In this document: piece after piece, positions 12,392 through 13,197 of the stretch
How the letters are laid out: each line of letters opens with the position of its first letter
Position numbering within the stretch: the first letter of the stretch is position 1
Origin: a bacterium
GTDB lineage: Bacteria; Patescibacteriota; Minisyncoccia; Minisyncoccales; MHMH01
Assembly: GCA_030648815.1 (NCBI GenBank)
Contig: JAUSHA010000029.1
Location: 1 to 19,473 of the forward strand
Reading direction: 5' to 3'
Length of the DNA: 19,473 nucleotides
Translations under genes and position numbers: made by a program
Notes under the pieces: model-generated
What the model saw: only the letters and a program-made list of their open reading frames with translations
Told to the model about the DNA's origin: nothing
Database searches by the model: none

Positions 12392-12420
12392 GTTGGGCGG
12401 ACGTCGGGTCTCCGCCCAAC
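12392..12420 (+). repeat. REP copy 1 (core TTGGGCGGACGTCGGGTCTCCGCCCAA), downstream of the rayT stop
   Basis: Palindromic 27-nt core, identical to the copy at 12924-12950 and to the reverse complement of the copy at 13170-13196. It forms a 10-bp stem GTTGGGCGGA/TCCGCCCAAC. Confidence 0.85.
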
Positions 12421-12422
12421 TT

Positions 12423-13160
12423 TTATTCTAGAAATAACTCATAATATTCTTTAAATTTTCCTTTATATTTTATATAATCTTCAATAAATTTCTCGCACGC
12501 TCTTTCACCACCCGTGGTTTCTAACATAAATTCTCTATCTGTTACTGATGGAAAATTCGGCTTTCCTAAATAATCAGAAAAACTTGACCATTTATACTCT
12601 TTCGCAAATTTTATAGCTTTCTTTATGTCGCGGATGCCCCTTTCTTTCCATTTCGGCTCTATCAAGGAAACTGAATTAGCATGAATATACGCAAAAACAA
12701 TTTTTAACTGTTCGTCAGTCTTGATGAGGACTGACAAAAATCTGTTCTGAAAAACGTAACCCTTGCGGCCATGTTTTAAATTAAAATATCTAGCATACCC
12801 GCCGCCGAATTTCTTCATAAATTTCACAATTCCACCATCTTTAATCTGTCTTATTAATAAATGAATATGATTCGGCATCAAACAAAAGGCTATAATTTCC
12901 ACAAGTTTATCTCGTAAATCAGTTTGGGCGGACGTCGGGTCTCCGCCCAAACTCTCTGTTTTTTTGAGATATGCCTTCATTCTGGAGCGATCCCTTCGAC
13001 GCTTTAAAATCTCTACCGGATTTATTGTATTAAATTCGTAAATAGAAAAAATCCCCCGATAATAGTCATTGGTATCTTTGAAAAGTTTATTATCATCAAT
13101 GCCCCTTAAAATAACGTGATAAATTCCGTCGTTAATAAATTGTTCTTTTCTGTATGGCAT
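12423..13160 (-). CDS. REP-associated tyrosine transposase (RAYT, TnpA_REP; IS200/IS605-like HuH enzyme)
   Basis: YHVILRG (first HuH-superfamily beta-strand), CLMPNHIHLLI (HuH motif) and YARYFN...GYVFQNRF (Tyr/Q-R region) in the canonical order. The likely start is ATG 13160 (MPYRKEQ). The gap between the N-terminal strand and the HuH motif is ~40 aa longer than in E. coli YafM/RayT and contains REP copy 2. Confidence 0.8.
   Translation of the reverse strand: MPYRKEQFINDGIYHVILRGIDDNKLFKDTNDYYRGIFSIYEFNTINPVEILKRRRDRSRMKAYLKKTESLGGDPTSAQTDLRDKLVEIIAFCLMPNHIHLLIRQIKDGGIVKFMKKFGGGYARYFNLKHGRKGYVFQNRFLSVLIKTDEQLKIVFAYIHANSVSLIEPKWKERGIRDIKKAIKFAKEYKWSSFSDYLGKPNFPSVTDREFMLETTGGERACEKFIEDYIKYKGKFKEYYELFLE
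12922..12953 (+). repeat. REP copy 2, located inside the rayT reading frame
   Basis: Same 27-nt core as copy 1. It is translated in-frame as ...ESLGGDPTSAQTD... within the RAYT ORF. Confidence 0.85.
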
Positions 13161-13167
13161 ATTGTGA

Positions 13168-13197
13168 GTTTGGGCGGAGACCCGACGTCCGCCCAAC
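13168..13197 (-). repeat. REP copy 3 in inverted orientation, between the rayT start and the ychF stop
   Basis: GTTTGGGCGGAGACCCGACGTCCGCCCAAC is the exact reverse complement of the core of copies 1 and 2. Confidence 0.85.

Follow-up and report, generated by a model that had tools for sequence, protein, structure and literature searches.

The window analysed here covers 19,473 nucleotides (nt), positions 1 to 19,473, of contig JAUSHA010000029.1, from an assembly of a bacterium of the Patescibacteriota, and its subject is a cassette in which a single gene resembling the REP-associated tyrosine transposases (RAYTs; REP, repetitive extragenic palindrome) carries a short hairpin on either side and, in frame, within its own coding sequence. 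The gene encodes a putative Y1/HUH transposase of 245 amino acids (aa) and stands second in a run of four genes on the minus strand, in the order ychF, the 245-aa gene, a serine hydrolase gene and a gene for an HI0933-like flavoprotein (Table 1). Three exact copies of a 27-nt palindrome, TTGGGCGGACGTCGGGTCTCCGCCCAA, are associated with it; no further match with up to three mismatches was found in the 19.5-kb window, and 200 shuffles yielded no match. When folded as DNA, each copy forms a stem of 9 to 12 base pairs (bp) around a 9-nt loop, with a predicted free energy (dG) of -10 to -14 kcal/mol (z -4.3 to -7.3). The basic stem is 9 bp, and the internal and downstream copies reach 12 bp through differing flanking bases.

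A first-pass annotation of this DNA had reported three identical palindromic copies, the outer two in inverted orientation just outside the stop and start codons and the third read through in frame. All of this held on re-examination: the copies are exact, the outer two are inverted relative to each other, and the 27-mer of the internal copy is translated as L71 to Q79 (LGGDPTSAQ), within ...KKTESLGGDPTSAQTDLRDK..., so that the protein tolerates a hairpin-encoded loop. The same annotation had likened the outer hairpins to transcription terminators, a likeness we could not substantiate; neither was flagged by a scan for terminator patterns, the loop being 9 nt long with no T-run after the stem, nor by a promoter scan.

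The most likely start codon is the ATG at 13160, judging from the conservation of the resulting N terminus (MPYRKEQF) among homologues. An alternative in-frame ATG at 13199 overlaps the stop codon of ychF (TAATG) and would add MLGGRRVSAQTHN, encoded by the upstream hairpin. An extension of this kind is annotated in one homologue (P0008), but L082 and L084, two of the related loci described below, do not share this layout.

Table 1. Features of the cassette and adjoining genes in the window
Feature	Coordinates	Strand	Evidence and remarks
RAYT-like Y1/HUH transposase gene, 245 aa	12423..13160	-	Pfam Y1_Tnp, homologues; stop codon 12423-12425
Upstream hairpin copy, 27 nt	13170..13196	-	Exact match; dG -10 kcal/mol, z -4.4; 9 nt 5' of the ATG and 2 nt past the ychF stop; inverted relative to the other two
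Internal hairpin copy	12918..12950	+	27-mer at 12924-12950 plus 6 adjacent bases make a 33-nt unit, in frame as L71-D81 (LGGDPTSAQTD); 12-bp stem over 12921-12953
Downstream hairpin copy, 27 nt	12393..12419	+	Exact match; dG -14 kcal/mol, z -7.3; 3 nt beyond the stop codon, with the next gene starting 12 nt further on; 12-bp stem over 12390-12422
Perfect 31-nt inverted repeat formed by upstream and internal copies	arms 12924-12954, 13166-13196		Repeat search; encloses the start codon and first 70 codons
ychF	13199..14266	-	Pfam YchF-GTPase_C and MMR_HSR1; cassette starts directly past its stop codon
Serine hydrolase gene	11838..12380	-	Pfam Ser_hydrolase, 83 bits; between the cassette and the HI0933-like gene
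HI0933-like flavoprotein gene	10564..11838	-	Downstream of the serine hydrolase gene

The protein matches the Pfam model Y1_Tnp over aa 83-161 with 43.3 bits (cut-off 23). Its HUH motif is H98-I-H100 and its catalytic-tyrosine motif Y158-I-H-x-N162, and 30 aligned homologues all share H98, H100, Y158 and N162. Two curated NCBIfam models score below their cut-offs: the RAYT model REP_Tyr_transpos (NF047646) gives 45.1 bits (cut-off 80), aligning with aa 83-164 only, and the IS200 transposase model NF033573 gives 16.9 bits (cut-off 55). The protein is therefore RAYT-like and not a certified member of either family. Searching 5.8 billion proteins yielded 1657 homologues; among the matches listed, essentially all are 240-250 aa long with full coverage, and those with named sources come from Patescibacteria or Nealsonbacteria. 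An exhaustive search at E <= 1e-30 gave 141 clusters at 50% identity. By these similarities the window gene belongs to a large family of RAYT-like Y1/HUH transposase genes found in Patescibacteria. A profile search of the PDB found nothing at E <= 0.01, with weak matches to ISDra2 TnpA at E ~0.02 over the HUH region only, and Foldseek found no significant PDB match to the AlphaFold model of the protein, the best being the IS200 transposase 2F4F at E 0.18.

Between the first beta-strand (YHVILRG) and the HUH motif the protein has about 30-40 more residues than Pfam Y1_Tnp or ISDra2 TnpA. The first-pass annotation had described an expansion of ~40 aa at this place; the extra length is real, but it is not an insert, as the segment is present in all homologues examined and contains D32, R35, F38, S39, Y41, E42, F43 and N44 as invariant residues of a 30-sequence alignment. 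Only aa ~66-81 of the segment are hypervariable in that alignment. The AlphaFold (AF2) model, with a mean predicted local distance difference test score (pLDDT) of 62, was used solely for topology and for placing the loop among secondary structure elements. In this model a low-confidence loop of aa 71-81 connects helices 48-70 and 82-93, and the residues of this predicted loop are exactly those encoded by the 33-nt hairpin unit. The hairpin covers only this hypervariable 11-aa loop between predicted helices, and not the whole of the ~40 aa.

One hairpin site, one codon phase, and concerted change with the flanks

Fetching 80 metagenomic loci that encode relatives provided 82 gene copies, of which 70 are non-redundant (below ~90% protein similarity). 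The 70 genes contain 53 GC-rich hairpins with at least six perfect bp; 50 of these lie at aa 55-95 and only 3 elsewhere. The codon phase is nearly as uniform as the position, with 46 of the 50 internal hairpins centred on the second base of a codon, the central codon being CCG (Pro) in 32 and CGG (Arg) in 14. Two peptides that recur here, D-P-x-S and R-V/A-S, are the translations of the hairpin core in its two orientations. Family hairpins share a core close to GAGRNCSGNYCTC, and stem positions outside it differ between loci with full compensation; one pair, for example, is G-C in 19 loci, A-T in 15 and C-G in 12. In a centre-anchored alignment 94.7% of cells were paired, a figure inflated by the choice of rows for a stem of at least 6 bp, compared with 69% after shuffling and 41-49% with a slid partner, and six of seven pairs showed double changes.

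Homologous loci also carry the cognate hairpin outside the gene, one copy centred 14-50 nt upstream of the ATG and another 8-25 nt past the stop. Perfect hairpins were counted at the internal site in 44 of 67 loci and at the two flanks in 39 and 44 of 67; ten loci keep the internal hairpin in the absence of perfect flanks. Most homologues of the transposase gene have a hairpin, and the rest show remnants, such as the decayed internal copies of L003, L029 and L062. The commonest arrangement is CCG-type upstream, CCG-type internally and CGG-type downstream, with the flanks inverted as in classical RAYT units: 35 of 43 upstream copies are CCG-type and 35 of 50 downstream copies CGG-type. The window has CGG upstream and CCG at the other two sites; in this minority form, common to L082 and L084, it is the upstream copy that is inverted relative to the rest. 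If the loop flips around its central base, stem and codon phase are both kept, so changes of orientation would be more simply explained by loop inversion within the palindrome than by re-insertion. Separately, some family members (L070:1776-2543, L072:2231-2998; protein P0044) have within the linker, in frame, a doublet of two inverted hairpins with an ~18-bp stem (e.g. ...TRTGLVQIKQGPSSN...), resembling the REP doublets called REPINs.

The internal copy follows the flanks of its own locus. When the ~90-nt linker was compared with the 150-nt flanks of the same locus without reference to the motif, the longest exact match had a median of 18 nt and reached at least 14 nt in 51 of 70 loci, whereas the same test on the remaining gene, roughly 7-fold longer, gave a median of 10 nt and at least 14 nt in 2 of 70. 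The best 17-mer matched the locus's own flanks at 16 or more of 17 positions in 43 of 69 cases upstream and 50 of 68 downstream, against 37 of 823 for flanks of other loci. A variable 4-nt signature in the stem was identical to that of a flank in 27 of 34 loci; permuting loci gave a mean of 4.5 and a maximum of 11.

Single loci illustrate the pattern. In the relative at 76% identity (L084), one and the same single-base variant sets every copy apart from those of the window, with GGAGACCCGACCTCC in place of GGAGACCCGACGTCC at all three sites. In the relative at 80% identity (L082), which shares the ychF context of the window, a private compensatory change from G-C to T-A affects the internal stem only, and L066 likewise shows compensatory changes private to its internal copy. 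A further case is a paralogue 42% identical to the window protein (L088). The AT-rich hairpin of its locus, AACGAAGAACGACATCGTT, is unrelated in sequence, and the 21 kb contain exactly three copies of it, upstream of, inside and downstream of the gene (L088:18163-18955). The internal copy is at the equivalent site and encodes KLTKNDIVSLV.

The first-pass annotation had entertained a very recent self-insertion that had not yet broken the frame. Because site and codon phase match across the family, and because the 42%-identical paralogue has a hairpin of its own in the same place, the internal copy is instead old; the identity of the three window copies is explained by concerted evolution, as in L084, where one variant occupies all three sites. 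On these comparisons the three-site layout is a deep family character evolving in concert, and its internal copy is ancient.

Copies beyond the gene, the cassette as a unit, and known systems

The first-pass annotation had called the palindrome a REP, a class expected to be abundant and intergenic, and the copy counts did not support this. Besides the three window copies, the 27-mer had one match in the representative genomes of 185,579 species (GTDB), inside secA, and an exact scan of the metagenome collection gave none. Across 536 kb of fetched sequence the core motif of the family was found at 177 places, with 0.2 expected, and 171 of the 177 lay within 200 nt of a family gene. These counts cover the window, contigs and representative genomes, with no complete genome of the lineage among the sequences scanned. 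The GTAG/CGTC tag was absent within 6 nt 5' of the stem from all 43 upstream and all 50 downstream copies and was seen at 1 of 46 internal ones; the flanks are merely A-rich and T-rich. By these counts the hairpin is not a classical abundant REP, and its copies are almost confined to cassettes.

The few dispersed copies are in frame inside other genes. The secA copy, in a Nealsonbacteria genome (L001, 2166-2198 on the minus strand, secA start at 2351), reads ...KELKNK-LGGDPTSAQTD-ILPEAF..., and shares 33 identical nt with the internal copy of the window, six more than the palindrome itself. Among 120 SecA relatives this loop is mostly a short 'KGETLDD', with expansions in a minority and a net length change of ~2-3 aa. 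Three further secA genes from related lineages, with identities of 88%, 79% and 73%, have family-type hairpins with different stems in the same loop (loci L085, L086 at 5259-5277 and L087 at 358-376); when those of L086 and L087 were compared with transposase-locus hairpins of the fetched loci, no same-genome pair was established. A gene for an Elp3-like radical-SAM/acetyltransferase (L079, open reading frame (ORF) 13622-15262, minus strand) holds two in-frame hairpins in its GNAT part, at 13794-13818 and 13891-13915, and their stems are unlike that of the transposase-like gene on the same contig (6042-6773).

Comparison of orthologous junctions suggests that the cassette behaves as one piece. 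L082 has the order ychF, cassette and HI0933-like gene, with a YchF 86% identical to that of the window over the 193 residues present. At the corresponding place L088 has an empty site (11066-11078), where ychF, encoding an 88% identical YchF, is followed after 7 nt by an HI0933-like gene with no cassette between them; its 42%-identical paralogue lies ~7 kb from this empty junction. The cassette of L084 stands in another context, between genes for an M50 peptidase and a tRNA synthetase. The serine hydrolase gene is absent at the orthologous place in both L082 and L088, a second insertion or deletion at that junction. Paralogues that share a contig are divergent (30-49% identity), and no multiple identical cassette copies were seen among the fetched loci. 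The whole hairpin-gene-hairpin unit (12390-13197) thus looks to have been gained or lost cleanly and to be otherwise vertically inherited in this clade.

In its general plan the unit resembles the REP/RAYT systems (TnpA-REP/YafM of E. coli, REPIN-RAYT of Pseudomonas), in which a single Y1/HUH gene is bracketed by short GC-rich palindromes, usually inverted. Each gene lineage here has its own cognate palindrome, as in those systems, and divergent pairs of gene and hairpin coexist on one contig (L046, L059); REPIN-like doublets flank the gene in L048, L053, L070 and L076. It differs in having a third cognate palindrome within the coding sequence, conserved in the family, and in palindromes nearly confined to the cassette, whereas REPs have tens to hundreds of intergenic copies. 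There is also no GTAG/CGTC tag, the protein is ~245 aa long with ~35 aa added before the HUH motif, and the hosts are Patescibacteria. To our knowledge, creation, movement and upkeep of palindromes by RAYT-type enzymes have never been shown in vivo, and are deduced mainly from genome statistics in Proteobacteria.

Elements of the IS200/IS605 type (IS200, IS608, ISDra2) likewise have a Y1/HUH enzyme with HUH and Tyr motifs in a unit of ~0.8 kb with hairpins near start and stop, and the presence or absence of the cassette at an orthologous junction is like that of an insertion sequence. IS200 in addition curbs its own expression through hairpins in its transcript (PMC3733652). Their left and right ends are distinct hairpins on the same strand, whereas the copies here are identical and usually inverted (in L088 they are direct, yet identical). 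We know of no internal end-like hairpin described for these elements. In-frame palindromes within genes are known from Rickettsia (the Rickettsia palindromic elements) and from other bacteria; Di Nocera et al. 2013 (PMC3733652) report intragenic GTAG/CGTC REPs, with different REPs recurring at one site of orthologous Xanthomonas recB genes. The hairpins described here are like these in lying wholly inside an ORF, free of stop codons, as an extra loop (in the window gene, in secA of L001 and L085-L087, and in the Elp3-like gene of L079), and the different hairpins at one secA loop recall the recB case. They differ in that the host gene is the element's own putative transposase, in that the internal copy co-varies with the two flanking it, and in a unit of 21-33 nt. 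That article also describes TIRYT genes and TIRtrons, in which a tyrosine-transposase gene lies between inverted repeats that have few or no copies in the genome (PMC3733652) and which the cassette resembles in having a RAYT-like gene with flanking repeats outside any large genomic repeat family; here, the repeats are short hairpins, not long terminal inverted repeats, and there is an extra intragenic copy. A REP inside a RAYT gene is not reported in the accessible part of the article (PMC3733652), and a literature search of incomplete coverage returned no description of such a REP, of the three-site layout or of this family in bacteria of the candidate phyla radiation (CPR).

Taken as a whole, the comparisons show a three-hairpin cassette that is conserved within a RAYT-like family of Patescibacteria and whose function, possibly autoregulation, we infer. 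It is a minimal system of ~0.8 kb, consisting of one gene and three hairpin copies, and dozens of independent lineages show its sites evolving in concert. One site bears the extra constraint of translation and so serves as an internal reporter from which reading frame, codon phase and loop flips can all be read. In the very compact genomes of Patescibacteria such hairpins lie inside coding sequences, including secA, and not between genes. Intragenic hairpins of this kind matter for annotation, for protein alignment and for how selfish or domesticated repeats persist in genomes lacking intergenic space.

Proposed role, alternatives and neighbouring genes

On balance we think it probable that the locus is a hairpin-gene-hairpin cassette with an ancient translated internal copy, which evolves in concert with the flanks and most likely limits the gene in cis. 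IS608 TnpA and E. coli TnpA-REP bind hairpins that form in single-stranded DNA, and they are able to cut and rejoin the strand beside them. By analogy with these two enzymes, all three copies would be recognition sites of the encoded enzyme, and cleavage and rejoining beside the hairpins would be a possible route to homogenisation. Conversion, whether by the enzyme or by recombination, might keep the copies alike, along with the tendency of palindromes to correct themselves, and loop flips (CCG to CGG or the reverse) could arise by recombination between the stem arms with the reading frame preserved.

That the intragenic site limits expression or activity of the gene in cis is the weakest step, and we infer it only. 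The limitation could be brought about by a strong hairpin in the transcript, by a long-range duplex, or by a site at which the gene's own product binds or cleaves. A strong hairpin would fall on rare CCG or CGG codons of the transcript. In the minimum free energy (MFE) fold of the RNA, a thermodynamic prediction only, the 31-nt arms pair into a duplex enclosing the start codon at -104.6 kcal/mol, compared with -63.4 +/- 5.1 for shuffles.

Several observations weigh against this proposal. The 245-aa protein is below the threshold of the curated RAYT model, so that hairpin binding by it can be argued by analogy only. By strict criteria, 23 of 67 loci have no perfect internal hairpin and yet an intact gene, which makes the internal site dispensable for the protein. 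All three copies are direct in L088, and orientation varies between loci, which is hard to square with one fixed mechanism. To these must be added the row selection that raises the pairing figure and the range of sequence behind the copy counts, both noted above.

The main competing explanation, somewhat unlikely in our view but a serious contender, is that the internal hairpin is a harmless passenger: a selfish copy lodged in the single loop where the protein accepts any sequence, without role or cost, and overwritten repeatedly from flanks 250-530 bp away. The encoded peptide is not conserved and falls in a low-confidence loop, the perfect stem is missing from about a third of loci whose genes remain intact, decayed remnants occur, and like hairpins sit in permissive loops of secA and the Elp3-like gene, all as expected of a passenger. 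Such an element should not, however, retain one site and one phase down to 42% protein identity. Overwriting from the flanks also fits poorly with the compensatory changes private to the internal copies of L082 and L066, with an internal site that is intact as often as the flanks, and with the ten loci that keep the internal hairpin when perfect flanks are gone.

Much less probable is a recombination or switch site, whereby pairing of the internal copy with an outer one would allow half of the gene to be excised, inverted or exchanged, be it by the enzyme or by the host, for example through an on/off inversion between the 31-nt arms or through shuffling of modules between cassettes. A perfect 31-nt inverted repeat does surround the 5' third of the window gene, all architectures include either an inverted pair or two or more copies that share a strand, there are mosaic signals among family members, and divergence of the N- and C-terminal modules is unequal in some pairs. 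Yet none of the 82 gene copies is an inverted or half-deleted variant, the partial matches comprising only a contig end and a distant paralogue, and a maximum chi-square scan of 164,220 triplets placed the breakpoints at about codons 90-105 and 140-160, not at the hairpin (codons 71-79). Substantial synonymous divergence in the N-terminal module further indicates that its high protein identity reflects constraint and not recent exchange. Insertion of a mobile REP into this gene copy in the very recent past, with the frame kept by chance, can hardly be maintained; the three copies are fully identical over 27 nt and the unit is a multiple of three, but relatives at 80% and 76% identity have their own versions at the same codons, most of the 70 non-redundant loci do likewise in the same phase, and concerted evolution accounts for the identity of the copies. 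Least credible of all is an ordinary protein segment, selected for its peptide and resembling the palindrome by coincidence, which the first-pass annotation had named among the outcomes that would refute its reading. Linker length is indeed similar in all homologues and a D-P-x-S or R-x-S motif recurs, but the recurring residues are the hairpin core translated in its two orientations around a central CCG (Pro) or CGG (Arg), the L088 peptide is wholly different and still matches its own flanks exactly, and what is conserved is the locus-specific DNA similarity to the flanks, not the peptide.

The genes of L011 and L035 are one example of the mosaic signals with breakpoints near codons 90-105 and 140-160. 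In one clade (L017, L018, L041, L043, L046 (7406-8125) and L056) the first 60 residues are 93-98% identical and the C-terminal 157 only 64-71%; synonymous differences show that this is mainly constraint.

A bolder version of the cis-limiting proposal is that the internal copy is an obligatory operator: in a self-contained ~0.8-kb unit, the Y1 enzyme would recognise the hairpin at three places, its own gene or transcript included, limit itself, keep its cognate copies identical, and also maintain a small number of in-frame 'coding REPs' in essential genes such as secA and the Elp3-like gene, in step across the whole genome with the master copies at its own locus. We regard this as doubtful. If true, REPs would be integrated with their host in a way that fits genomes nearly devoid of intergenic DNA, and RAYT-driven homogenisation of hairpins could be watched directly in a natural setting.

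The only convincing terminator-like site nearby, a 14-bp stem followed by a T-run, is at 14364-14395 on the minus strand, upstream of ychF; given this single site, ychF, the transposase-like gene and the genes downstream may be co-transcribed. An Rfam scan of the region gave only a sub-threshold T-box match (21.9 bits against 93), which we took as noise. Elsewhere in the window, an 830-aa ORF (6516-9008, plus strand) combines major-vault-protein domains (MVP_shoulder, 89 bits, and Vault_3) with SPFH/Band 7. Genes for a Ser/Thr kinase, a metallophosphoesterase and a VWA protein lie close by; for a Patescibacteria genome of small size this is an unusual combination. Three ORFs on the minus strand, of 420 aa (14413-15675), 287 aa (1367-2230) and 228 aa (16227-16913), have no Pfam match at E <= 1e-5, and the 420-aa product contains Cys-rich stretches (CASCNG...CELCG).

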